From Escherichia phage ECP2304: 63,590 nucleotides of DNA. The notes beneath the pieces are model-generated. The model saw only the letters and a list, made by a program, of their open reading frames with translations. It did not search any database and had not been told where the DNA came from. The DNA is taken from sequence record OR880647.1, one strand, 5' to 3'. Both the position numbers and the translations under genes were made by a program. Shown piece after piece: positions 1 to 63,590 of this stretch. How positions within the stretch are numbered: position 1 is the first letter of the stretch; each line of letters begins with the position of its first letter.

Positions 1-441
1 GAATAATTTATTCCTACTTGATAGAATAATGGAATCGGTACTCCAGAGCGCAAAAACCTAAAACTTTCAGTCAACAGACTAAAAACGGATAGAAACTAAA
101 AGTTAATAAGTAATAACATAAATATATATAAAATAAGGATTTATTAGTAATGTATATAGTACCTATTGGTATTATTTGAATGTTTTTGGGTCATTGTTAA
201 AAAGTCCCAAAACTCACAAAAAGTGAAAGAATACAATTCGTGACAGGATTGTTAATGGAATAAGGTGTATGGATATACAGTATTATTCCAGATTCCGGAA
301 TAATTGGAATAATGGAATAAATTATTGAACTATTGTGATCGGAAGGTATATCAAGCTATAATGCGCTTAATCGCGGGATATTGGAGGAGGACTTTATTGC
401 GCGGTTAACCGGACCAGTAGGAGGGCTGGCCCGGAAGTAGT

Positions 442-768
442 TTAGAGCTGTACAGGTGTGAAGTGGGCTAGCGTATCGTCGGACATAATACCCGACAGTT
501 TTTCGTTTACCCAGTCGGACCAAATGCTATCCGGTTCCTGGCGGTGCACAAACCAGATTTCGGATGTGCCTTCTTTGCGCATCGGTTGCACTTCTGCAAG
601 GAACTTGTCCTGCATAAGGCGCGTGAAGCAGACGCTGGTCATTGGAACCGGCTTTTCGTCTTTATTGTAATAAGGGACCAATATTTTATTTCCGAAGTCT
701 GCAACTTCATAAACTGTTCCTTTGCGAAGGCCTCTGATGTCAGTGTAAGAGCGGATGAACTTTTTCAT
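442..768 (-). CDS. hypothetical protein (108 aa)
   Basis: ATG start, clean ORF in minus-strand gene string inside repeat. Confidence 0.5.
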   Translation of the reverse strand: MKKFIRSYTDIRGLRKGTVYEVADFGNKILVPYYNKDEKPVPMTSVCFTRLMQDKFLAEVQPMRKEGTSEIWFVHRQEPDSIWSDWVNEKLSGIMSDDTLAHFTPVQL

Positions 769-770
769 AT

Positions 771-947
771 TTATTTCCTTACGAACACAGAGCCGACGAA
801 TAATGTTGATTGAGTTGCAGCTTGCTCGATTAATTCGCCAACAAGCTGGGACTGCGTCAGAGGTTTAAGGCCTTCTTTGGCGCGAGCTTCATTTACACGA
901 CGTTGAAGGTCTTTTAGGTATTGAGTTGCGAAACTATCTAATTGCAT
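771..947 (-). CDS. small hypothetical protein (58 aa)
   Basis: ATG at 945-947 preceded by AAGGA RBS; stop 771-773; below track size cutoff. Confidence 0.4.
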   Translation of the reverse strand: MQLDSFATQYLKDLQRRVNEARAKEGLKPLTQSQLVGELIEQAATQSTLFVGSVFVRK

Positions 948-996
948 CTTCTTATCCTTAGGGCTCCCGCAGAAGCCCGTTGAATGTGGTTATCGA

Positions 997-1146
997 CTAT
1001 AACGCTGCAAACATAAGCAGACGAATATTAACTGAAGTTTGGCTATTAAAGTCTTGACATTCTTTGATAATCTCTTCTTCACTTTTACCACTAAGTTTAG
1101 AATATTCTGTGATTGCTTGTTTTAATACAGAATCAAAATTGTTCAT
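997..1146 (-). CDS. small hypothetical protein (49 aa)
   Basis: ATG at 1144-1146 preceded by AAGGAGG RBS; translated by hand to TAG at 997-999. Confidence 0.45.
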   Translation of the reverse strand: MNNFDSVLKQAITEYSKLSGKSEEEIIKECQDFNSQTSVNIRLLMFAAL

Positions 1147-1156
1147 TTTATCCTCC

Positions 1157-1771
1157 TTATGCGTCCAGACCGTTGTATTTGCGCCAGGCGTAGAACTGAA
1201 TGGCGACAGTTGTTCCGTTGTAAGAAGGCATTGCAGCTTTCATCTCTTTCAGCGCCGGCGTGCGGCCCAGTTCCTTCAGAAGCTTGTCACCCATTGCCCA
1301 CACTTCGGCAGTTTTTCCTTTAAGGGGCTTGCGAGCGCCATTTTTGAAATCGCAGCGAGCAGCTTTTGCATCCTGTTTTGGAGCGGCAGCTTTTGGCTCT
1401 TCAATTTTGATTTCAGAAACCTGCGTGGCAGCTTTTGCGTGTTTCATATCTTTCTCTTCCTCCTGCTCCAAAGCTTTGAGGCAGCTTTTGACGATTTCCG
1501 GATTTACCATCGGGCGCAGTACCGAGGCGCTAGCAGCTGGAGCGGCGGTCGGTGCTGGGGCTTTCTGCTCCGGCTTTTGAGCTTTTTCGTGATCGCGCAG
1601 CACCTGAAGGACTTCCTTTTCGACGATGTAAAAACCGATATCGTCCTGATGGATAAGCTGTTCGTGTGCGTCGCGTGCAACCTGGCCCCAGCGAGTTTTC
1701 AGAGCGCGGCGTGCATTCGTTTTCATGGTGTAGCGCATTTTGTCCTGTTCGCGGTGAGTTACTTTAGACAT
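1157..1771 (-). CDS. hypothetical protein (204 aa), basic N-terminus and Ala/Pro-rich linker
   Basis: ATG at 1769-1771 preceded by AAAGGAG RBS; in-frame with track ORF 1157..1816. Confidence 0.6.
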   Translation of the reverse strand: MSKVTHREQDKMRYTMKTNARRALKTRWGQVARDAHEQLIHQDDIGFYIVEKEVLQVLRDHEKAQKPEQKAPAPTAAPAASASVLRPMVNPEIVKSCLKALEQEEEKDMKHAKAATQVSEIKIEEPKAAAPKQDAKAARCDFKNGARKPLKGKTAEVWAMGDKLLKELGRTPALKEMKAAMPSYNGTTVAIQFYAWRKYNGLDA

Positions 1772-1844
1772 GGTATAGCTCCTTTCGTTAATGTTAGTTT
1801 GCTTATTACTGCCCACCGTAATGATGAGCAGTGTATAAGAAAAC

Positions 1845-2093
1845 TTACTGCACGATTGCTACGAAATCGGCGGTTGCGATATCCATGCTTGCAAACGCTT
1901 TGACGGTGTAGCTGGTATCTGCCGCGGCGTTGAAGTCGCTCAGGAACTGTTGTACCGCGTGCTCATGGTTGAGCATTACGTCTACATTGCAGTCCCAGCT
2001 ATAAACCTTGCGCTGACCGAAACCTTTAACTGCAATACGCGCGCCTTTGGTGTTGGTTGGTGCCAAAAATTTGGTGACGATAGAAGTAGCCAT
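1845..2093 (-). CDS. hypothetical protein (82 aa)
   Basis: ATG with GAGGA RBS. Confidence 0.55.
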   Translation of the reverse strand: MATSIVTKFLAPTNTKGARIAVKGFGQRKVYSWDCNVDVMLNHEHAVQQFLSDFNAAADTSYTVKAFASMDIATADFVAIVQ

Positions 2094-2166
2094 GATGTAA
2101 TCCTCGTTTTGTTTAAGTTGACTTATTATTGCCCAGTCAGATCAACTAGGCAAGATATAAATCAGC

Positions 2167-2391
2167 TTATTTAACCATCAAGGCCCATCTTTTATAGCCG
2201 TTCAGCTCCATTCTATGACCGTGGTCGTTGCAGTAACGTTGGATATTATTAAAGTCGTTATCGTTCATATCGCTGACGTCAATATTAAAATAGTTGCGCT
2301 TTGCAGGTGTAACGTATTGGGATAACTGCATTGAGTACAGATGTTCAATGTTGTCGATAATAGCTTGCTGAACTTTAGTGATAGTAGCCAT
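2167..2391 (-). CDS. hypothetical protein (74 aa)
   Basis: Internal ATG at 2389-2391 preceded by GGAGGTG RBS; track ORF extends to 2451. Confidence 0.5.
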   Translation of the reverse strand: MATITKVQQAIIDNIEHLYSMQLSQYVTPAKRNYFNIDVSDMNDNDFNNIQRYCNDHGHRMELNGYKRWALMVK

Positions 2392-2781
2392 GATACACCT
2401 CCTAATGTGGTTAAGCAGTATTGCTTTGTTGAAGTAATAATAGCCTTGCATCGTGATATTGAATAGGCCAAACGTGCTATTTTGATATTGTTTTGCATCT
2501 AGTGAAAATCATGCTTGTATCGCATATTTAGCACTAATGGCCTAACTAACATCACACGATCTGGTCTACGCGCGTGCATACATACATATAAGGAGTGCCG
2601 GACAGGATCGGACCGACCAGGGGCGCTCAACCGTCTCTGTCCGTCCTGTAAGCTGGTCCCCGGACTGGTCCAAAATATTTTTATAAAAAGATGCAAAAAG
2701 GTGTAGACATATGATCAATCTAACCCTACTATATACACATACCGCAAGGGTACTACAAATTAACTTAAAGGGGTTTACATC

Positions 2782-2985
2782 ATGTCTATTCGTAGCGTTA
2801 TCTGTGTAATGGTTGCAAACAATAATTTTGGTTTCGTAGAAGGTGCAGAGTATAAAATGGATCTTAAGACTCGTTGCATTATTAAAGGTGAAGAGGAATG
2901 GCGTGCAGTGGTAGAAGATCGCGGCGATATCTACATCTATAGTTCTGATACAATGAAAACTATTGCCGTCTTCGAATTTAACTAA
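2782..2985 (+). CDS. hypothetical protein (67 aa)
   Basis: ATG with AAAGGGG RBS; first plus-strand gene after divergent intergenic region. Confidence 0.55.
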   Translation: MSIRSVICVMVANNNFGFVEGAEYKMDLKTRCIIKGEEEWRAVVEDRGDIYIYSSDTMKTIAVFEFN

Positions 2986-3053
2986 GCTAACTTATACAAT
3001 GGGCATTAGTACAGTGCCCATTAATAAGCTAACTAATTATAACGAGGTGTATT

Positions 3054-3239
3054 ATGTCTACGAACACTGTGAAGTCTGTAAATAATAGCAACAGAACATT
3101 TAAAGTTATCTATTATGGCGAATATATTGGAGACGTTACAGCTCCCAGCCGCATCGCTGCGGAAGACTTCGTCCGTACAGAGATGGAGCTTGGAATCGCC
3201 GATTTTGCAGCCATTATCGAACTGGTAGAGGTATTCTGA
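3054..3239 (+). CDS. hypothetical protein (61 aa)
   Basis: ATG with GAGGTG RBS. Confidence 0.5.
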   Translation: MSTNTVKSVNNSNRTFKVIYYGEYIGDVTAPSRIAAEDFVRTEMELGIADFAAIIELVEVF

Positions 3240-3240
3240 T

Positions 3241-3381
3241 ATGCAACGCAAATACACGCTTACACGCGCACAGCACGCGTTATTGATTGCAGCTATGCGC
3301 GCAGAATATGCAGTACACGGCTGGCATAGCGCCATGATGCGAGGTAAAAGCATATATGCAGACATATGCTCGCAAGAATAA
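3241..3381 (+). CDS. small hypothetical protein (46 aa)
   Basis: TGAtATG coupling to upstream gene; hand-translated to TAA at 3379-3381. Confidence 0.35.
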   Translation: MQRKYTLTRAQHALLIAAMRAEYAVHGWHSAMMRGKSIYADICSQE

Positions 3382-3944
3382 CGCACACAGCAGCACCACA
3401 GCGAGCTAAAGCTCAAAGGTAATGGTAATGCATTACCAACACACAATAAGCACGCTGTACCCAGCAAAGCGGCGCTAATTTCAACACTCACAGGCTGTAC
3501 GTTAACGCGTACGGCCTGCTCTGCTATATGCACGCCATGTATATAGCCAGCTCACAATGCACATCAATATAATTACGAATGAAATGGATTCGTCTGGAAG
3601 AATAACAATTCTTACAGTCACAGACCGGTCCAATGAGCCAACTCATAGACCCCACCTAGGATCATCAGGGTACTAATAATCACCCGAGGGCCCTTATCCA
3701 TCCTGATAGTAAGTGCTTGCCTAAATCTTACCCATCACTTTACTATCCACATACATCCATGACCCCACCTACCTTCTTTTTGAATATATTGCGCTCATCC
3801 TTTCTAAATATATGGATTTTGGTAGTAAATTCTGAGTCGTCAACGTATAATCCGTCTTGTAGCTGCCCCATAGCTACCATCTTTAAGCGGATGCAACCAA
3901 TTTCTATCAATTCTCACCAGTTTTAGAGCATCAAGGAGGTATTT

Positions 3945-7543: not shown

Positions 7544-7804
7544 ATGACTACATTCAGTCACCTGATCCCACCTGCTTATCACAGCAAGGTAGTTGACCAC
7601 GGGACGCATGTTGTAATTGGTGGCGAAATCTTTATCACAGATAACGAGGAAATCGCCATTGCAATTATTGACAGCACTCAGCATGACTTTATGGTTATCC
7701 TGCAACACGAACCCGATAACTTCACTTTTTACTCCAGCTACGGGGTCGATAAAGGTGGAAAAAGCCTTGTTAGCTGGTACATTAGCGAGTGGTTTGACGG
7801 GTAA
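7544..7804 (+). CDS. hypothetical protein (86 aa)
   Basis: Clean ORF. Confidence 0.5.
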   Translation: MTTFSHLIPPAYHSKVVDHGTHVVIGGEIFITDNEEIAIAIIDSTQHDFMVILQHEPDNFTFYSSYGVDKGGKSLVSWYISEWFDG

Positions 7805-7886: not shown

Positions 7887-8324
7887 ATGGCGCTTCAACC
7901 TCGTGGTATTCGTAACAACAATCCAGGTAACATTCGCTGGGGTGATAATTGGCAGGGATTGGTCCCTGTTGATAAGCGGACCGACAAATCTTTTGCACAG
8001 TTCACGCAACCGATTTACGGCATCCGTGCTCTAGCTAAAGTCCTGACCAACTACACCAAACGCGAAGGCTTGCCCAATGTGGGTAAGAAAAACATCGACA
8101 CTGTACGTGAAATTATCGCTCGCTGGGCCCCGCCTAATGAAAACGATACGGAAGCGTATATTCGTTCTGTTGCCAAAGCAATTGGTGTTCAACCTAACGA
8201 TCCAATTAATGTCTTCGACAAGACGATAATGTCAGGTTTGGTGAAAGCAATCATTCGTCATGAAAATGGCATGATGCCTTATACTGATGACGTGATCGAC
8301 CGCGCTATTGCAATGGTAATTTAA
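7887..8324 (+). CDS. putative endolysin (soluble 146-aa protein at head of lysis cassette)
   Basis: ATG at 7887 after GGAGGA; lies directly upstream of holin-like and spanin genes; function by context only. Confidence 0.4.
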   Translation: MALQPRGIRNNNPGNIRWGDNWQGLVPVDKRTDKSFAQFTQPIYGIRALAKVLTNYTKREGLPNVGKKNIDTVREIIARWAPPNENDTEAYIRSVAKAIGVQPNDPINVFDKTIMSGLVKAIIRHENGMMPYTDDVIDRAIAMVI

Positions 8325-8360
8325 CTGATGGGGCGTCAGCCCCTTTTTATTGGAGGGAAC

Positions 8361-8705
8361 ATGTTCAACTCATCGAACGAACATTGGGCAGTTCTAGCGG
8401 GGTTTGCTCTGATTTCCCTCATTGGGGGAGCTCTCGGTTACGTCATGCGTACAATTGACGCTGGTAAGAAGGTACGGATAAGCATTGCATGTCTTGAAGG
8501 CTTATCTGCCGCGTTCTTCGGCGTTATAATGTACGCGATCTACAGGGAGTTTAATATCAGCCTTTGGTTCGCTTTTGGCCTTGCTGGCCTATTCGCTTGG
8601 GCGGGTTCACGTGCTACGCTAAAAGCTCTAAAGTCGCTTCTAGCATCGCGGACAGGGATCAAACTCGACTCAGAGGACTGCAAACATGAAAATGATTCTA
8701 AATAA
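8361..8705 (+). CDS. putative holin (multi-TM membrane protein)
   Basis: ATG at 8361 after GGAGGG; about three hydrophobic segments; between endolysin candidate and spanins. Confidence 0.5.
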   Translation: MFNSSNEHWAVLAGFALISLIGGALGYVMRTIDAGKKVRISIACLEGLSAAFFGVIMYAIYREFNISLWFAFGLAGLFAWAGSRATLKALKSLLASRTGIKLDSEDCKHENDSK

Positions 8706-9162
8706 CTTCTTCGGCTTTATAAAAGCTAAACCGCGTCTGTTTATCGAGTATTTGATGATCGGCGCGGTAGTGTTTTTATGCGGGGTAGCTGCCTACCTGT
8801 GGTCACAGAACGAGCTTAACAAATCAAATTTAAGTTTGGCTGAAGAACGTTTAACCGTTGTGGAGAAAGACAATGCAAAGCTGGGCGAGGCTGTTGTATT
8901 TCTTGCTGCACAAAGGGAGAAGGACACGGACTCTTTCAAGAAACTAACTTCTGCAATTCAAGATGAACAACATAACCACAAGTTGCTTCAGGACAAGTTG
9001 CAGACACTGGAGAAAAGCAATGCTGACGTCAAAGCTTATCTTAACGAGCGTATTCCTGATGATTTGCGCAGGTTGCTCGACGCAAACTCAACCTCCTCCA
9101 GCTCCACAGATAGTGAAGGTAAGACTACCCGCACATCTACTGGTGGAATGTCGGGAAGTTGA
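8686..9162 (+). CDS. i-spanin (Rz-like)
   Basis: N-terminal TM helix then coiled-coil; o-spanin embedded in +1 frame. Confidence 0.65.
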   Translation: MKMILNNFFGFIKAKPRLFIEYLMIGAVVFLCGVAAYLWSQNELNKSNLSLAEERLTVVEKDNAKLGEAVVFLAAQREKDTDSFKKLTSAIQDEQHNHKLLQDKLQTLEKSNADVKAYLNERIPDDLRRLLDANSTSSSSTDSEGKTTRTSTGGMSGS

Positions 9163-24089: not shown

Positions 24090-24498
24090 AATGCCAGGAT
24101 GGCAGACACGTTTATTAACCACAGTAAAGGAGTTAGCATCGACTCCTTTTTCTTGGGGCGAAAACGATTGCTGTACGTTTGCCGCTAAATGTGTTGATGC
24201 ACAATACAACACAAATATTTATAATCAGATAGCAGGTAAATATAGCACAGAGATTGGAAGCAAGCGGTTTTCAATTGAAAAAGTCGGAACAGCTTATCTT
24301 CCAACCTTGCTGGATGCTTACCTGAGTGAGCGTGTTGATAAGAACTTTGCACAAAGAGGAGATGTGGTTACATTTGAGGGAGCATTGGGCTTAACTGCTG
24401 GCATATTATGGACGGGATATGTATGGGCTATGGGTCCGAACGGTGTGGAAACATTCCCGCTTAATAAGATCAAAATCACGGATATTTGGAGGGTCTAA
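24064..24498 (+). CDS. tail assembly protein (K-like, possible NlpC/P60-type Cys peptidase)
   Basis: ATG 24064 after GGGGGAG; ENDCCTFAAKC Cys motif; gene order. Confidence 0.4.
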   Translation: MRQDSRMSKMPGWQTRLLTTVKELASTPFSWGENDCCTFAAKCVDAQYNTNIYNQIAGKYSTEIGSKRFSIEKVGTAYLPTLLDAYLSERVDKNFAQRGDVVTFEGALGLTAGILWTGYVWAMGPNGVETFPLNKIKITDIWRV

Positions 24499-27137
24499 TG
24501 CCACCAGCAATAATTGGAGCAGCAATAGCTTTAGGTGCTTCCGCTGCCGCTGCGGCGGGGTGGATTGCTACGGGCGTAGCTTTGGCTATTGGTATGGCTG
24601 CAACTGCGGCAGGTGCTCTTTTAACTAAGACACCTAATATGAACTTTAATGCTTATAAAGGTCAACAAGAGCGTAAGCAGGTTTTACGAGCGGCCGCAGC
24701 GTCCCGAACAGTGGTATACGGGACAACGGTTGCTTCCGGTGTTATGACGTTTGCCGAGGAGCAGCCTGGTGATCAAGACGAAGACGAACTCCTGCATATG
24801 GCGCTTGTTGTAGCTTCACATCCATTGGAGGGGATTGGTGATATTTGGCTTGGGGATGATCTTGTACAGACTTTCGAACAGTATGTTACTTGGGAATTTC
24901 ATAACGACCGTCAGACTGTAGATCCATTCATGTTAAGTAATTGCCCTTCCTGGAAAGAGGATATGATTGGGAAAGGGATTGCATGGCTTCGCATTAGCTT
25001 TAAATTTAATGCGGAAAAATTCCCGTCCGGCTTGCCAAACATTAAGCTCCTTAAAAGAGGTCGCCGTGTATATGATCCTCGTTCTGGTTATACCATATTT
25101 AGCGATAATGCAGCTTTAGTAATACTTGATTACTTCCGCACGTATTTAAAGCGAAAAGATGAAGATATTAACTGGGACCAGTTCAAAGAAGCTGCTAACA
25201 TCTGTGATGAATACGTCAATAACGCTGATGGTTCTACAGAGCGCCGTTATAAAATTAACGGTGAATTTGAAGTAGATGAGGCCCCCTCCAAAATTCTGGA
25301 TGCTATGTTGCAAGCTTGCGGTGGCGAGCTAACGTATGTGGCTGGTAAACACGGTCTTCTGGTTGGCGCATATTACGGTCCAGCAACAATGACGCTGGAC
25401 GAAAGTTGTATTGCTGGGGATATTAAGATTGTTCCAGAGACTTCTTATAAGGAGCGCACAAACACCATCACAGGGACATTTATTGATCCGAAGCAGAACT
25501 ACGTTGAAGCAGACTTCCCTCCAGTTGTGGTTAAGGAATGGGTGGAAAAGGATGGCGGGGAAATAACTCAGGACATGGATTTTCGTTTTGTAACTAGTGA
25601 ATATCAGGCACAACGTTTGTCTAATATTATTCTACGTCGTAAACGTGTTGGACGTACAATTGAAATCCCTTGTAATATGAAGGGTTATAAGTTCCGTCCA
25701 GGAATGTATGTAAAAGTTACCATCACGCAGATTGGCATGAAGAATGTTGAAATGCGCGTTACCAAATGGTCTTTTAATCCTAAAGGTGGTGTTAACCTTA
25801 CATTACGTCAAGATTTCCTGGAAATGTGGGACGATGCAATTGGTAAGCCTATGGACCGACCGGATCTTGTAGACTTGCCCAGTGGTGGTGTTGCTCAGCC
25901 TCAAAATCTTCAATACCAGATATTGCAGATTAGTGATGTGGTACAAGGGGTATTATCCTGGACCAACATGGGGCAAGTTGCATATAACCGCGTAGCCGTG
26001 CGACAGGGTGGCGTTACTATTTGGACCGCACAAGTCCCTGGCCAAAGCGTTCGTGTTACTGGGTTGCTGCGGGGAGCGTATACTGCGCACGTTCAAGCTG
26101 TATCGCACAGTGGCGCAATATCACCGGAAGCGTATCTGGAGTTTAATATTCAAGCCCCGCCGCCACCTTCATCTGTCGAAATACAGAACGGTTATTTTTC
26201 TTTAACTCTTATACCAAAGATTGCAGAGCTGACTAGTGTTAGCACACAATTTGATTTCTGGACGTCTGGTGAAACAAAACTGCCATCTGCTAATACAGAT
26301 GTTGTCGAGCGCGATGCTACCCGTGAAGGTATGGGTACTATATGGCAGAAAAATAACTTACTCAATGACCACACTTATTACTGGTATATAAGAACCATCA
26401 ACGCCTTTGGCTCGTCCGCGTTTGTGGAAGTTGAAGCTCGTGTATGGGCAGAAACTGCACAAATCATAGAAATTATGGATAAAGAGTTTCAAGAAACTGA
26501 GACTTTCAAAAACCTCATGGAGACTGTACAAAAGGTTGATGACGGTGTAACAGAATTGTCCAAAGTGGTAGAAGGTCAAGCTTCCAAGATAGATTCTGTT
26601 CAGACAAGTGTGGGTAATGTTGTTGTCACCGTGCAAGAACAGTCACAAGCACTAGCAGACCTTAACGGCAAACTTTCCGCTCAATGGGGTCAAAAAGTTC
26701 AGATTGACAATAATGGTAATAAATATGTTGCAGGTATGCAGCTAGGTATTGAAGGTAGCGGAGGACAATTCCAGTCTTACTTCATGGTAAGTGCGGACAA
26801 CTTCGCTATTTATAATCCTGTAGCGGGAGCAGCACAGCTTGCTTTTGCTATTAAAAACGGTCAAAGTTTCTTACAAGAAGCCTTTATTGAGAATGGCTCA
26901 ATCACCAACGCCAAGATTGGTAATGTTATTCAGTCCAATAACTGGAATGGTAACGATCAAGGTTGGGCAATTACAAAAGACGGTTATTGCGTATTTAATA
27001 ACGTTACCGTCAGAGGAACGGTCGTCGCTAACGCTGGTCAATTTGGTTTCAACGGAAATGGAGGTATTACAATTGATAGTAACGGTATTCGCGTTCCGTT
27101 ATCCGGCGGTGGTGTTGTCATAGTAGGACGCTGGTAA
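24498..27137 (+). CDS. tail tip / host specificity protein (J-like)
   Basis: 879 aa; ATG 24498 after GGAGGG; Gly/Ala-rich hydrophobic N-terminus; position after K-like gene. Confidence 0.6.
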   Translation: MPPAIIGAAIALGASAAAAAGWIATGVALAIGMAATAAGALLTKTPNMNFNAYKGQQERKQVLRAAAASRTVVYGTTVASGVMTFAEEQPGDQDEDELLHMALVVASHPLEGIGDIWLGDDLVQTFEQYVTWEFHNDRQTVDPFMLSNCPSWKEDMIGKGIAWLRISFKFNAEKFPSGLPNIKLLKRGRRVYDPRSGYTIFSDNAALVILDYFRTYLKRKDEDINWDQFKEAANICDEYVNNADGSTERRYKINGEFEVDEAPSKILDAMLQACGGELTYVAGKHGLLVGAYYGPATMTLDESCIAGDIKIVPETSYKERTNTITGTFIDPKQNYVEADFPPVVVKEWVEKDGGEITQDMDFRFVTSEYQAQRLSNIILRRKRVGRTIEIPCNMKGYKFRPGMYVKVTITQIGMKNVEMRVTKWSFNPKGGVNLTLRQDFLEMWDDAIGKPMDRPDLVDLPSGGVAQPQNLQYQILQISDVVQGVLSWTNMGQVAYNRVAVRQGGVTIWTAQVPGQSVRVTGLLRGAYTAHVQAVSHSGAISPEAYLEFNIQAPPPPSSVEIQNGYFSLTLIPKIAELTSVSTQFDFWTSGETKLPSANTDVVERDATREGMGTIWQKNNLLNDHTYYWYIRTINAFGSSAFVEVEARVWAETAQIIEIMDKEFQETETFKNLMETVQKVDDGVTELSKVVEGQASKIDSVQTSVGNVVVTVQEQSQALADLNGKLSAQWGQKVQIDNNGNKYVAGMQLGIEGSGGQFQSYFMVSADNFAIYNPVAGAAQLAFAIKNGQSFLQEAFIENGSITNAKIGNVIQSNNWNGNDQGWAITKDGYCVFNNVTVRGTVVANAGQFGFNGNGGITIDSNGIRVPLSGGGVVIVGRW

Positions 27138-27147
27138 TTAAACATTC

Positions 27148-27169
27148 AAACGGGGCCCATGCCCCGTTT
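27148..27169. terminator. bidirectional terminator between convergent genes
   Basis: AAA-CGGGGC-CCAT-GCCCCG-TTT, flanked by A and T runs. Confidence 0.65.
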
Positions 27170-27170
27170 A

Positions 27171-28136
27171 TTAATACATATTTGGTATAGCTATGAGCGG
27201 TGTCGAGATTACCACGTTACGACCGGGCAGTTGGAATTGTTGTCGCGAGTAGTTGCCTACCACGCGGTTTCTTGCAGCACCTACCACATTATCTGCCATG
27301 CGAATCCCGTTCATGCGAATATGATTATAACCTCCGTTGTTCTCAATAAGCGTGCCTGTGTATGCAAGTTGTATTAAGCTGTTACCAATATTTTGCCATC
27401 CTGCGCTAAGATCTACTGTTCCGTTGAATACAAAAGGCTTCTTAACCGTGGAGAACGTAACCTGCCCCGCGCTGTTCGTCATGGTAATACCATCACCAGG
27501 CTGTGGGGGAGTATTGTTAAATATTACTAATTCCATTCCAACAGAAGCCGCTACGTCATCAATTCCACCATATGCTGCGTTACGAACGATAATATTCGAA
27601 CCATCAAAACCTACTGACACGTTAGGGTCGTTCCAGCGAGCAAACGGAACACCACCGACAGGTAATGGCATACTGCCGTTAACCCATACGTACTGGGAAT
27701 ACTGACAAGTCATGAGAAAGGCTGCGTTGGATATTGCTGTGAAGTCCGTGGAGTTAGCCACAAATAGACCCTCGTTTCGCGTTCCTACAGGTAGCAGTTC
27801 CATAATCACCCCTGCCCATTGCGGCAGTCCCCTATAGGCACCCAGTCCGTCCGCACCTCGCAACGTAACTCCACTGTCCCCGTTTCGGGTTACGGACGTT
27901 ACATACATTGGATCGGGGATAACTAGCGTCTGATCAAATACTTCCAGTACTTCAACTGGGTTAGTCATAATAACGACAAGCTGCGATCCTGGCGTCAGAG
28001 GTGTATTGATGGTTAGCGTCTTATCGGATTGACAGCGTTGATTGAAGTTGGCGCAGAAAGACGGAGCGCGTAATCCTGCTGTTATCTGCATTGCAGGTCT
28101 GCCGTCATTGTAGTTTATATAAATACCCTCTGGCAT
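27171..28136 (-). CDS. hypothetical beta-rich protein on opposite strand within tail module
   Basis: ATG 28134-28136 after GGAG; track ORF extends to TTG at 28172; no signal peptide seen. Confidence 0.55.
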   Translation of the reverse strand: MPEGIYINYNDGRPAMQITAGLRAPSFCANFNQRCQSDKTLTINTPLTPGSQLVVIMTNPVEVLEVFDQTLVIPDPMYVTSVTRNGDSGVTLRGADGLGAYRGLPQWAGVIMELLPVGTRNEGLFVANSTDFTAISNAAFLMTCQYSQYVWVNGSMPLPVGGVPFARWNDPNVSVGFDGSNIIVRNAAYGGIDDVAASVGMELVIFNNTPPQPGDGITMTNSAGQVTFSTVKKPFVFNGTVDLSAGWQNIGNSLIQLAYTGTLIENNGGYNHIRMNGIRMADNVVGAARNRVVGNYSRQQFQLPGRNVVISTPLIAIPNMY

Positions 28137-28260
28137 AATTACTCCAACAATGTGGTTAAAGATGGTAGACAATATTGTTTTATATTCTAATTTAATTTAC
28201 CATATTTGTATGCCATAGTGCATCCATTAATTGATCAACTCTGCGAAACAAGAGGTAAAA

Positions 28261-59787: not shown

Positions 59788-60336
59788 ACCCTAACACCCA
59801 AATCCCGACTGTTAGTAAAAAACGTATATAAATCAATAGCATAGATACTAAATGAATAGTGATTGGAATGGGTAGAAATCCAAATGATGGAAGTGGAATA
59901 ATTTATTCCTACTTGATAGAATAATGGAATCGGTACTCCAGAGCGCAAAAACCTAAAACTTTCAGTCAACAGACTAAAAACGGATAGAAACTAAAAGTTA
60001 ATAAGTAATAACATAAATATATATAAAATAAGGATTTATTAGTAATGTATATAGTACCTATTGGTATTATTTGAATGTTTTTGGGTCATTGTTAAAAAGT
60101 CCCAAAACTCACAAAAAGTGAAAGAATACAATTCGTGACAGGATTGTTAATGGAATAAGGTGTATGGATATACAGTATTATTCCAGATTCCGGAATAATT
60201 GGAATAATGGAATAAATTATTGAACTATTGTGATCGGAAGGTATATCAAGCTATAATGCGCTTAATCGCGGGATATTGGAGGAGGACTTTATTGCGCGGT
60301 TAACCGGACCAGTAGGAGGGCTGGCCCGGAAGTAGT

Positions 60337-60663
60337 TTAGAGCTGTACAGGTGTGAAGTGGGCTAGCGTATCGTCGGACATAATACCCGACAGTTTTTCG
60401 TTTACCCAGTCGGACCAAATGCTATCCGGTTCCTGGCGGTGCACAAACCAGATTTCGGATGTGCCTTCTTTGCGCATCGGTTGCACTTCTGCAAGGAACT
60501 TGTCCTGCATAAGGCGCGTGAAGCAGACGCTGGTCATTGGAACCGGCTTTTCGTCTTTATTGTAATAAGGGACCAATATTTTATTTCCGAAGTCTGCAAC
60601 TTCATAAACTGTTCCTTTGCGAAGGCCTCTGATGTCAGTGTAAGAGCGGATGAACTTTTTCAT
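60337..60663 (-). CDS. hypothetical protein (repeat copy of 442..768)
   Basis: Identical duplicate in right repeat. Confidence 0.5.
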   Translation of the reverse strand: MKKFIRSYTDIRGLRKGTVYEVADFGNKILVPYYNKDEKPVPMTSVCFTRLMQDKFLAEVQPMRKEGTSEIWFVHRQEPDSIWSDWVNEKLSGIMSDDTLAHFTPVQL

Positions 60664-60665
60664 AT

Positions 60666-60842
60666 TTATTTCCTTACGAACACAGAGCCGACGAATAATG
60701 TTGATTGAGTTGCAGCTTGCTCGATTAATTCGCCAACAAGCTGGGACTGCGTCAGAGGTTTAAGGCCTTCTTTGGCGCGAGCTTCATTTACACGACGTTG
60801 AAGGTCTTTTAGGTATTGAGTTGCGAAACTATCTAATTGCAT
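60666..60842 (-). CDS. small hypothetical protein (repeat copy of 771..947)
   Basis: Identical duplicate. Confidence 0.4.
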   Translation of the reverse strand: MQLDSFATQYLKDLQRRVNEARAKEGLKPLTQSQLVGELIEQAATQSTLFVGSVFVRK

Positions 60843-60891
60843 CTTCTTATCCTTAGGGCTCCCGCAGAAGCCCGTTGAATGTGGTTATCGA

Positions 60892-61041
60892 CTATAACGC
60901 TGCAAACATAAGCAGACGAATATTAACTGAAGTTTGGCTATTAAAGTCTTGACATTCTTTGATAATCTCTTCTTCACTTTTACCACTAAGTTTAGAATAT
61001 TCTGTGATTGCTTGTTTTAATACAGAATCAAAATTGTTCAT
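60892..61041 (-). CDS. small hypothetical protein (repeat copy of 997..1146)
   Basis: Identical duplicate. Confidence 0.45.
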   Translation of the reverse strand: MNNFDSVLKQAITEYSKLSGKSEEEIIKECQDFNSQTSVNIRLLMFAAL

Positions 61042-61051
61042 TTTATCCTCC

Positions 61052-61666
61052 TTATGCGTCCAGACCGTTGTATTTGCGCCAGGCGTAGAACTGAATGGCG
61101 ACAGTTGTTCCGTTGTAAGAAGGCATTGCAGCTTTCATCTCTTTCAGCGCCGGCGTGCGGCCCAGTTCCTTCAGAAGCTTGTCACCCATTGCCCACACTT
61201 CGGCAGTTTTTCCTTTAAGGGGCTTGCGAGCGCCATTTTTGAAATCGCAGCGAGCAGCTTTTGCATCCTGTTTTGGAGCGGCAGCTTTTGGCTCTTCAAT
61301 TTTGATTTCAGAAACCTGCGTGGCAGCTTTTGCGTGTTTCATATCTTTCTCTTCCTCCTGCTCCAAAGCTTTGAGGCAGCTTTTGACGATTTCCGGATTT
61401 ACCATCGGGCGCAGTACCGAGGCGCTAGCAGCTGGAGCGGCGGTCGGTGCTGGGGCTTTCTGCTCCGGCTTTTGAGCTTTTTCGTGATCGCGCAGCACCT
61501 GAAGGACTTCCTTTTCGACGATGTAAAAACCGATATCGTCCTGATGGATAAGCTGTTCGTGTGCGTCGCGTGCAACCTGGCCCCAGCGAGTTTTCAGAGC
61601 GCGGCGTGCATTCGTTTTCATGGTGTAGCGCATTTTGTCCTGTTCGCGGTGAGTTACTTTAGACAT
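61052..61666 (-). CDS. hypothetical protein (repeat copy of 1157..1771)
   Basis: Identical duplicate. Confidence 0.6.
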   Translation of the reverse strand: MSKVTHREQDKMRYTMKTNARRALKTRWGQVARDAHEQLIHQDDIGFYIVEKEVLQVLRDHEKAQKPEQKAPAPTAAPAASASVLRPMVNPEIVKSCLKALEQEEEKDMKHAKAATQVSEIKIEEPKAAAPKQDAKAARCDFKNGARKPLKGKTAEVWAMGDKLLKELGRTPALKEMKAAMPSYNGTTVAIQFYAWRKYNGLDA

Positions 61667-61739
61667 GGTATAGCTCCTTTCGTTAATGTTAGTTTGCTTA
61701 TTACTGCCCACCGTAATGATGAGCAGTGTATAAGAAAAC

Positions 61740-61988
61740 TTACTGCACGATTGCTACGAAATCGGCGGTTGCGATATCCATGCTTGCAAACGCTTTGACG
61801 GTGTAGCTGGTATCTGCCGCGGCGTTGAAGTCGCTCAGGAACTGTTGTACCGCGTGCTCATGGTTGAGCATTACGTCTACATTGCAGTCCCAGCTATAAA
61901 CCTTGCGCTGACCGAAACCTTTAACTGCAATACGCGCGCCTTTGGTGTTGGTTGGTGCCAAAAATTTGGTGACGATAGAAGTAGCCAT
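61740..61988 (-). CDS. hypothetical protein (repeat copy of 1845..2093)
   Basis: Identical duplicate. Confidence 0.55.
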   Translation of the reverse strand: MATSIVTKFLAPTNTKGARIAVKGFGQRKVYSWDCNVDVMLNHEHAVQQFLSDFNAAADTSYTVKAFASMDIATADFVAIVQ

Positions 61989-62061
61989 GATGTAATCCTC
62001 GTTTTGTTTAAGTTGACTTATTATTGCCCAGTCAGATCAACTAGGCAAGATATAAATCAGC

Positions 62062-62286
62062 TTATTTAACCATCAAGGCCCATCTTTTATAGCCGTTCAG
62101 CTCCATTCTATGACCGTGGTCGTTGCAGTAACGTTGGATATTATTAAAGTCGTTATCGTTCATATCGCTGACGTCAATATTAAAATAGTTGCGCTTTGCA
62201 GGTGTAACGTATTGGGATAACTGCATTGAGTACAGATGTTCAATGTTGTCGATAATAGCTTGCTGAACTTTAGTGATAGTAGCCAT
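62062..62286 (-). CDS. hypothetical protein (repeat copy of 2167..2391)
   Basis: Identical duplicate. Confidence 0.5.
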   Translation of the reverse strand: MATITKVQQAIIDNIEHLYSMQLSQYVTPAKRNYFNIDVSDMNDNDFNNIQRYCNDHGHRMELNGYKRWALMVK

Positions 62287-62676
62287 GATACACCTCCTAA
62301 TGTGGTTAAGCAGTATTGCTTTGTTGAAGTAATAATAGCCTTGCATCGTGATATTGAATAGGCCAAACGTGCTATTTTGATATTGTTTTGCATCTAGTGA
62401 AAATCATGCTTGTATCGCATATTTAGCACTAATGGCCTAACTAACATCACACGATCTGGTCTACGCGCGTGCATACATACATATAAGGAGTGCCGGACAG
62501 GATCGGACCGACCAGGGGCGCTCAACCGTCTCTGTCCGTCCTGTAAGCTGGTCCCCGGACTGGTCCAAAATATTTTTATAAAAAGATGCAAAAAGGTGTA
62601 GACATATGATCAATCTAACCCTACTATATACACATACCGCAAGGGTACTACAAATTAACTTAAAGGGGTTTACATC

Positions 62677-62880
62677 ATGTCTATTCGTAGCGTTATCTGT
62701 GTAATGGTTGCAAACAATAATTTTGGTTTCGTAGAAGGTGCAGAGTATAAAATGGATCTTAAGACTCGTTGCATTATTAAAGGTGAAGAGGAATGGCGTG
62801 CAGTGGTAGAAGATCGCGGCGATATCTACATCTATAGTTCTGATACAATGAAAACTATTGCCGTCTTCGAATTTAACTAA
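62677..62880 (+). CDS. hypothetical protein (repeat copy of 2782..2985)
   Basis: Identical duplicate. Confidence 0.55.
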   Translation: MSIRSVICVMVANNNFGFVEGAEYKMDLKTRCIIKGEEEWRAVVEDRGDIYIYSSDTMKTIAVFEFN

Positions 62881-62948
62881 GCTAACTTATACAATGGGCA
62901 TTAGTACAGTGCCCATTAATAAGCTAACTAATTATAACGAGGTGTATT

Positions 62949-63134
62949 ATGTCTACGAACACTGTGAAGTCTGTAAATAATAGCAACAGAACATTTAAAG
63001 TTATCTATTATGGCGAATATATTGGAGACGTTACAGCTCCCAGCCGCATCGCTGCGGAAGACTTCGTCCGTACAGAGATGGAGCTTGGAATCGCCGATTT
63101 TGCAGCCATTATCGAACTGGTAGAGGTATTCTGA
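62949..63134 (+). CDS. hypothetical protein (repeat copy of 3054..3239)
   Basis: Identical duplicate. Confidence 0.5.
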   Translation: MSTNTVKSVNNSNRTFKVIYYGEYIGDVTAPSRIAAEDFVRTEMELGIADFAAIIELVEVF

Positions 63135-63135
63135 T

Positions 63136-63276
63136 ATGCAACGCAAATACACGCTTACACGCGCACAGCACGCGTTATTGATTGCAGCTATGCGCGCAGA
63201 ATATGCAGTACACGGCTGGCATAGCGCCATGATGCGAGGTAAAAGCATATATGCAGACATATGCTCGCAAGAATAA
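63136..63276 (+). CDS. small hypothetical protein (repeat copy of 3241..3381)
   Basis: Identical duplicate. Confidence 0.35.
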   Translation: MQRKYTLTRAQHALLIAAMRAEYAVHGWHSAMMRGKSIYADICSQE

Positions 63277-63590
63277 CGCACACAGCAGCACCACAGCGAG
63301 CTAAAGCTCAAAGGTAATGGTAATGCATTACCAACACACAATAAGCACGCTGTACCCAGCAAAGCGGCGCTAATTTCAACACTCACAGGCTGTACGTTAA
63401 CGCGTACGGCCTGCTCTGCTATATGCACGCCATGTATATAGCCAGCTCACAATGCACATCAATATAATTACGAATGAAATGGATTCGTCTGGAAGAATAA
63501 CAATTCTTACAGTCACAGACCGGTCCAATGAGCCAACTCATAGACCCCACCTAGGATCATCAGGGTACTAATAATCACCCGAGGGCCCTT

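Follow-up and report, generated by a model that had tools for sequence, protein, structure and literature searches.

The gene on the minus strand at positions 27171..28136 of the window (the whole stretch of DNA analyzed here, 63,590 nucleotides of Escherichia phage ECP2304, sequence record OR880647.1) very likely encodes the terminal, LptD-binding receptor-binding protein (RBP) of this phage, as part of an exchangeable host-recognition cassette. The 321-aa product belongs to Pfam family DUF6453 and is a homologue of RBP-Oeko/bas18 of phage Oekolampad and of Rtp44 of phage Rtp. A sequence-only reading of the same DNA had placed a 321-aa minus-strand gene between a J-like gene and a tail-fiber gene, and the open reading frame, the Pfam match, and the domains of both neighbors agree with that placement.

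The region surrounding the gene is 94–96% identical to the Seuratvirus phages phiG7 and SA126VB and 83–89% identical to the BASEL Nonagvirus and Seuratvirus phages, and because of these identities, we assign the window to a virulent, Seuratvirus-like coliphage of the Queuovirinae. We note that positions 1–3695 of the window recur base for base at 59896–63590 (3,695/3,695), corresponding to a wrap-around or a terminal repeat in the sequence as presented, and thus the unique genome is 59,895 bp. On one side, the gene is flanked by the J-like tail-tip gene (24486..27137, plus strand, 883 aa), which matches Phage_Tail_Tip, Ig_J_second, and phrog_31 (“central tail fiber J”). On the other side lies the lateral tail-fiber gene (28261..30453, plus strand), with a phage_tail_N domain and a C-terminal Peptidase_S74 domain, the counterpart of which is annotated as “lateral tail fiber protein” in the BASEL genomes. 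This gene lies outside of the cassette and is considered here only as context; its product probably recognizes a surface glycan as the primary receptor. The lateral tail-fiber locus as a whole (28261–31332) is mosaic, with only its first ~380–850 nt common to other Queuovirinae, and with a segment at 29585–30432 that is ~83% identical to fiber genes of the T5-like phages phiAPCEc03 and FFH_1. Where this phage has one 730-aa fiber with a Peptidase_S74 chaperone, phiG7 and SA126VB have three genes. The open reading frame that follows at 30496–31332 (plus strand, 278 aa from a TTG) matches phrog_9288, of unknown function, only from residue 44, and its real start is therefore probably further downstream.

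In terms of its boundaries, the gene of interest spans 966 bp, and its stop at 27171 converges on that of J at 27137. The longest version of the open reading frame (27171..28172, minus strand) starts from a TTG and encodes 333 aa, while the ATG at 28136 yields 321 aa and is preceded, 8 nt upstream, by GGAG. We consider 27171..28136 to be the right extent of the gene because the homologues, including the protein of solved structure, all begin at the equivalent methionine, and we rejected the TTG start at 28172 on the same grounds and in view of the GGAG motif. A 72-aa open reading frame on the plus strand (27159–27377) and other small overlapping frames were dismissed as chance frames inside a well-supported gene. 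The composition of the gene is ordinary, with a GC content of 47.5% compared to 44.4% for the window.

The protein matches DUF6453 over profile positions 1–290 of 291, with an E-value of 1.1e-131 and a score of 438.9 bits against a cut-off of 25, which rules out a chance open reading frame. Searching the PDB by sequence retrieved only chain C of entries 9RPT/9RPW/9RQI (E 3.4e-163, 75.6% identity over 320 residues, 2–321), where chain C of 9RPT is the RBP of phage Oekolampad (Bas18), as determined by cryo-EM in complex with LptDE, the lipopolysaccharide translocon (PMC12685063; Dunbar et al., PNAS 2025). An AlphaFold2 model of the protein from the window, built on 43 homologues (pLDDT 91.1, pTM 0.91), consists of strands only, with no helix, which bears out the earlier description of the protein as beta-rich. 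When this model was compared to the PDB using Foldseek, 9rpt_C was again the sole match at E ≤ 0.001 (E 1.9e-31, rmsd 3.0), with a TM-score of 0.88 when normalized to the 254 modeled residues of the target. The predicted structure thus superposes on the solved RBP and shares the all-beta fold of the LptD-targeting RBP family, a fold that Black et al. present as a pair of lectin-like beta-sandwiches (PMC13035648).

Membership of this family has been defined by >30% identity at >99% coverage (bioRxiv 10.64898/2026.04.02.716166), and the protein from the window is homologous over its full length, with 75.6% identity to 9rpt_C and 95.3%, 67.6%, and 66.7% identity to the proteins occupying the same slot in Bas19, Bas20, and Bas25, respectively. 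Its gene also lies downstream of J, as do those of the family, with the same arrangement in nine related loci. Homologues were found in 347 phage records, 329 of them full-length, and the family extends to Klebsiella Webervirus-like phages (~34% identity) and to many enterobacterial chromosomes. A literature search for the name DUF6453 returned nothing relevant.

The functional prediction builds on the biochemistry available for Oekolampad. The purified RBP of this phage binds LptDE, and a cryo-EM structure at ~2.8 Å places it deeply inserted in the open LptD barrel, with an interface of ~1,700 Å2 and with polar contacts mostly to loops EL3–5 and EL11 of LptD; furthermore, the LptD substitutions Y671N and D352Y each abolish both binding and infection by Oekolampad (PMC12685063). 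Gln299, which in 9RPT bonds to Ser350 of LptD loop EL4, is conserved in the protein from the window. Taking this together with the 67–95% identity to homologues from LptD-dependent phages, the protein is predicted to bind LptDE, and infection by this phage is expected to be LptD-dependent.

A different role for the same protein, namely as an assembly or accessory factor that helps J or the lateral fiber to fold, could be read from its position adjoining the fiber genes and from the fact that some records label its homologues “tail fiber protein”. We find this barely conceivable, as the homologue binds LptDE on its own through the extensive interface described above, no chaperone family was matched, and the lateral fiber carries its own intramolecular chaperone in the form of its Peptidase_S74 domain.

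The genetic evidence from related phages likewise points to receptor binding. The BASEL study by Maffei et al. (PLoS Biol 2021, PMC8594841) identified what it terms “bona fide RBP loci”, situated immediately after gpJ in phages of the Drexlerviridae, Dhillonvirus, Nonagvirus, and Seuratvirus, and reported that the allele found there matches the terminal receptor “without exception”. In the same study, a mutant collection gave no surface-protein receptor for Bas19, Bas20, and Bas25, spontaneous mutants resistant to seven such phages carried changes in lptD, and Bas25 was listed as LptD-targeting, with Bas22 being LamB-dependent (PMC8594841). The genes bas19_0020, bas20_0020, and bas25_0021 occupy the same slot as the gene described here, also on the minus strand. 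This locus rule has since been upheld on 64 T1-like phages (2026 preprint, bioRxiv 10.64898/2026.04.02.716166), and work carried out independently on phage OzMSK arrived at the same function for a family member that is less closely related.

It is worth considering where the sequence varies within the family. The most variable blocks lie at about residues 31–40, 61–110, and 261–310, and include the stretch around residue 299. We also observe that the Bas19 RBP differs from the protein of the window at 15 positions, 6 of which cluster at residues 299–311, next to Gln299, and this cluster may represent small adjustments in how near-identical alleles contact the receptor. Since the variable blocks include the LptD-contacting stretch near residue 299, the fine specificity of the protein, that is, which LptD variants are bound, could differ from that of the Oekolampad RBP. 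Taken further, the same variability, and the Bas19 differences in particular, could indicate an RBP of this family with a shifted receptor, recognizing either another outer-membrane protein or only LptD variants other than that of K-12. The isolation hosts of the closest relatives are varied (E. coli O108 and Salmonella), and Bas01 needs NupG besides LptD, via a J domain, both of which would be compatible with such a shift. However, membership of the family at >30% identity has so far predicted LptD use without exception, LptD-dependent relatives lie on both sides of the protein in terms of similarity (95% for Bas19, 76% for Bas18, and 67% for Bas20 and Bas25), and J of the window phage, at 883 aa, is of the short LptD type and lacks any additional distal domain. 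A shifted receptor thus appears quite improbable, and we retain LptD as the predicted terminal receptor.

The composition of J itself provides a further link between the gene and host recognition. The 3′ end of the J-like gene (26886..27137, plus strand) encodes the C-terminal tip of the protein, residues 801–883 of 883, which shares 46–57% identity with its counterpart in Dhillonvirus and Rogunavirus phages of the LptD type, compared to 17–34% for the rest of J, and which is 100% identical in Bas19 and SA126VB. The last ~50–80 residues of J co-vary with the type of RBP: the tip carried by the window phage is the GpJ C-terminal domain found with LptD-type RBPs, and it diverges from that of the LamB-type phage Dru_SM1, which is otherwise 93% identical. 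Based on this co-variation and on a proposal in the literature, we infer that the C-terminal tip of J is the site at which the RBP docks, non-covalently. Comparison with Dru_SM1, a Seuratvirus that carries a different allele and is 94.7% identical through J, also delimits the cassette, because DNA homology ends at 26988 and resumes at 28261, the ATG of the fiber gene, giving an exchangeable unit of ~1.3 kb. The cassette, at about 26989–28260, thus contains the final ~50 codons of J, followed by a hairpin, the opposite-strand RBP gene, and an AT-rich gap.

The hairpin is G+C-rich and lies at 27148..27169, between the converging stop codons of J and the RBP gene, with the sequence AAACGGGGC-CCAT-GCCCCGTTT forming a stem of 9–10 bp around a 4-nt loop. 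The calculated folding free energies are −15.2 kcal mol–1 on the plus strand and −16.3 kcal mol–1 on the minus strand (z-scores of −3.5 and −3.1), and none of 200 shuffled sequences folded as well on either strand. The element is identical in SA126VB, phiG7, and Bas25, and the annotations of SA126VB and AKS96 place a terminator here on each strand. A scan for consensus terminators accepts the hairpin on the minus strand only, the T-run on the plus strand being short. The earlier proposal of a bidirectional terminator is therefore upheld with respect to the stability of the hairpin on both strands and the annotation of the relatives, and with respect to the consensus scan on the minus strand only; overall, the hairpin is likely an intrinsic terminator for both J and the RBP gene.

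At its right end, the cassette is closed by the divergent intergenic region at 28137..28260, which was previously given as an AT-rich stretch of 125 bp; its AT-richness is confirmed (29% GC, compared to 44% for the window), while its length is 124 bp. This region is near-identical across four LptD-type Queuovirinae (including SA126VB, Bas19, and Bas20), and is kept in Bas20 although the Bas20 RBP is only 68% identical; its counterpart differs in LamB-type genomes. Such a pattern of conservation suggests a control region, presumably holding the promoters for the RBP gene (leftward) and for the lateral tail-fiber gene (rightward). A scan of both strands of the gap for a sigma-70 promoter of the RBP gene returned only weak matches (8/12), an example being CATACA-17-TAGAAT at 28212–28184.

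We turn now to the suggestion, made in the sequence-only reading, that the isolation of the gene on the opposite strand is moron-like and could mark a host-range, exclusion, or conversion function. In its full form, this would make the gene an autonomously transcribed, non-structural accessory gene that confers exclusion or conversion on the infected cell or lysogen, and the layout does resemble a transcription unit of its own, with the opposite strand, the 3′ hairpin, and the 5′ AT-rich gap. PHROG 1265 also files the family as “membrane protein”, under the category “moron, auxiliary metabolic gene and host takeover”, and the “membrane protein” label has been carried over to RBP homologues in several GenBank records. 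A moron would be expected to be dispensable, non-structural, and polymorphic for presence or absence; however, the slot is filled in every related Queuovirinae genome examined, and the 76%-identical homologue is a structural RBP with demonstrated LptDE binding. The slot is held by a DUF6453 RBP gene in phiG7, SA126VB, Bas19, Bas20, and Bas25, and in Bas22 and Dru_SM1 by a 77-aa minus-strand lipoprotein with a clear lipobox, accompanied by a J that is ~100 residues longer (983–987 aa); since these two phages carry an alternative host-recognition allele, the slot is never empty.

The orientation of the gene is similarly uninformative as a sign of foreign cargo. In Citrobacter prophages, whose J is detectably related to that of the window phage at the DNA level, J is followed on its own strand by the DUF6453 gene, the start codon of which overlaps the J stop codon, and then by a tail-fiber gene, making the DUF6453 gene part of the tail operon. 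In Dhillonvirus (HK1, Bas14) and Rogunavirus (AKS96) phages, on the other hand, the RBP gene also lies opposite J and converges on a terminator. Because the Dhillonvirus and Rogunavirus phages share this layout and the Citrobacter prophages keep the gene in the tail operon, the opposite-strand arrangement is the usual way in which virulent small siphoviruses lay out this cassette, and does not mark foreign cargo. For reference, the DUF6453 gene is found at 8001–8945 of prophage contig L009 and at 7720–8664 of L010, followed in both by a Phage_tail_C_2 fiber gene, and L009 additionally contains a 70-aa minus-strand open reading frame (3342–3554) just after the tape-measure gene.

The properties of the protein itself are equally at odds with an exclusion or membrane role. 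No signal peptide, lipobox, or membrane segment was found in its sequence, in which the maximum 19-residue hydropathy is 1.15, and the protein therefore cannot be an exclusion protein of the Rtp45, Llp, or Cor type. Superinfection-exclusion lipoproteins are ~60–80 aa long, with a signal peptide and a lipobox cysteine, while the present protein has 321 aa and a hydrophilic N-terminus (mean hydropathy −0.37). Lysogenic conversion is not applicable to the phages of this group, which are virulent, and the GC content of the gene is, as noted above, unremarkable. Taking all of these points into account, we regard a moron-type gene as highly improbable, and both the exclusion and the conversion proposals fall with it. 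The host-range proposal was right, since the gene encodes, in all likelihood, the terminal RBP of the phage. The “membrane protein / moron” label of PHROG 1265 is not supported, and is misleading, because the protein has neither a signal peptide nor a membrane segment, and the homologous RBP is soluble.

The sequence-only reading had also named the outcome that would count against it, namely, a conserved virion component with late expression in all relatives. As far as conservation and role are concerned, this is essentially what we find, and an RBP would be expected to be present in particles and to be expressed late. Our literature search found neither a virion proteome for any phage carrying this RBP nor a cryo-EM structure of the tail tip of a small siphovirus that carries it; the proteomics in PMC6563131 covers Tunavirinae, T5-like, and RB69-like phages, with 5–8 proteins detected for each.

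Combining these observations, the terminal RBP proposed here would most likely act as a soluble, all-beta, two-sandwich protein that assembles non-covalently on the C-terminal tip of J. The lateral fibers would contact the cell first, following which the distal loops of the RBP would insert into the extracellular mouth of LptDE, as has been demonstrated for the 76%-identical homologue, and this insertion would commit the phage to irreversible adsorption and DNA ejection. Host-recognition cassettes of this kind are exchanged horizontally between phages of the Drexlerviridae, Dhillonvirus, and Queuovirinae.

The only part of the locus without an existing explanation is the missing lipoprotein of the Rtp45 type. 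In the RBP family, a cognate Rtp45-type lipoprotein gene directly upstream of the RBP gene is an accessory rather than a strictly defining feature, and it is absent here, with only the 124-bp gap separating the RBP gene from the fiber gene. No credible exclusion lipoprotein of either the Rtp45/SE-Oeko type or the LamB type was found in the whole window by tblastn, a three-sequence HMM, phmmer, or a lipobox regular expression, with best E-values of 0.5 (tblastn) and 0.29 (three-lipoprotein profile). The same lipoprotein is absent from SA126VB, Bas19, Bas20, Bas25, and phiG7. Because it is missing from both the locus and the 59.9-kb genome, a non-homologous exclusion factor may exist elsewhere in LptD-using Queuovirinae. 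We tentatively put forward, as a conjecture that is unlikely to hold, that LptD-using Queuovirinae, with their RBP-only cassette, shield both the infected cell and the progeny against re-adsorption via LptD by means of an unrecognized, non-homologous factor. If no exclusion factor exists, these phages would provide a natural test of the worth of exclusion to a virulent phage.

The family, its receptor, its structure, and the genomic logic of the locus were all published between 2021 and 2026, and thus the finding is real but ordinary and contains no new biology. Its practical value is that the terminal receptor of this phage can be read from sequence as LptD, an essential, conserved outer-membrane protein, which is useful for choosing cocktail phages and for predicting cross-resistance: the LptD changes Y671N and D352Y, as well as deletion of EL11, should block the window phage too. 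Swapping the 1.3-kb cassette would offer a route to host-range engineering, and the misleading PHROG 1265 label is corrected.

Among known systems, the closest is Oekolampad (Bas18, Dhillonvirus), the RBP of which shares with the protein of the window the DUF6453 domain, its length, 75.6% identity from end to end, the predicted fold (TM 0.88), and Gln299, and the gene for which likewise lies just after gpJ, on the opposite strand, and with a convergent terminator. The two differ in the genomes that carry them (a 44-kb Dhillonvirus compared to a 60-kb Queuovirinae genome here), and in J, which has ~1,150 aa in Oekolampad compared to 883 aa here and is ~25% identical outside of the tip. They also differ in that the Dhillonvirus phages HK1 and TheodorHerzl have an exclusion lipoprotein gene immediately upstream of the RBP gene (bas18_0026 in Oekolampad), which is absent here. 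Within the Queuovirinae, the BASEL genes bas19_0020, bas20_0020, and bas25_0021 share the slot, the orientation, a near-identical intergenic region, and the lack of a lipoprotein gene; differences from these are allelic only, concentrated in blocks 51–110 and 236–321, and the downstream lateral fiber genes differ.

More distantly, the RBP family and fold recur in the Rtp44/Rtp45 module of phage Rtp and in the corresponding modules of Bas01, OzMSK, and Rogue1-type phages (Drexlerviridae), with the homologue in the Rogue1-type phage AKS96 being ~42% identical to the protein of the window. In the Rtp and Rogue1-type loci, too, the RBP gene lies downstream of J, is read from the other strand, and ends at a convergent terminator. 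The Dhillonvirus (HK1, Bas14) and Rogunavirus (AKS96) loci differ in being two-gene operons, in which a 74–81-aa exclusion lipoprotein homologous to Rtp45 comes first and the RBP second. Rtp45 itself binds LptDE on the periplasmic side and displaces EL4.

Outside of the family, pb5 (oad) of phage T5, with its partner Llp, is alike in that a monomeric RBP at the tip of the central fiber binds an outer-membrane beta-barrel via loops, and in both the T5 pb5 and Oekolampad RBP structures the tail-proximal part of the RBP is poorly ordered in the receptor-bound state. The receptor of pb5 is, however, FhuA, Llp excludes by an allosteric and not a steric mechanism, and pb5 has no sequence or fold relationship to the protein of the window, being absent from both our sequence and fold searches. 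Finally, the C-terminal domain of lambda GpJ and the LamB-type Queuovirinae (Bas22, Dru_SM1) represent the other type of occupant of this host-recognition site on the tail tip, where receptor binding resides in a C-terminal extension of J (983–987 aa in the LamB-type Queuovirinae) and the minus-strand slot holds the 77-aa lipoprotein only.
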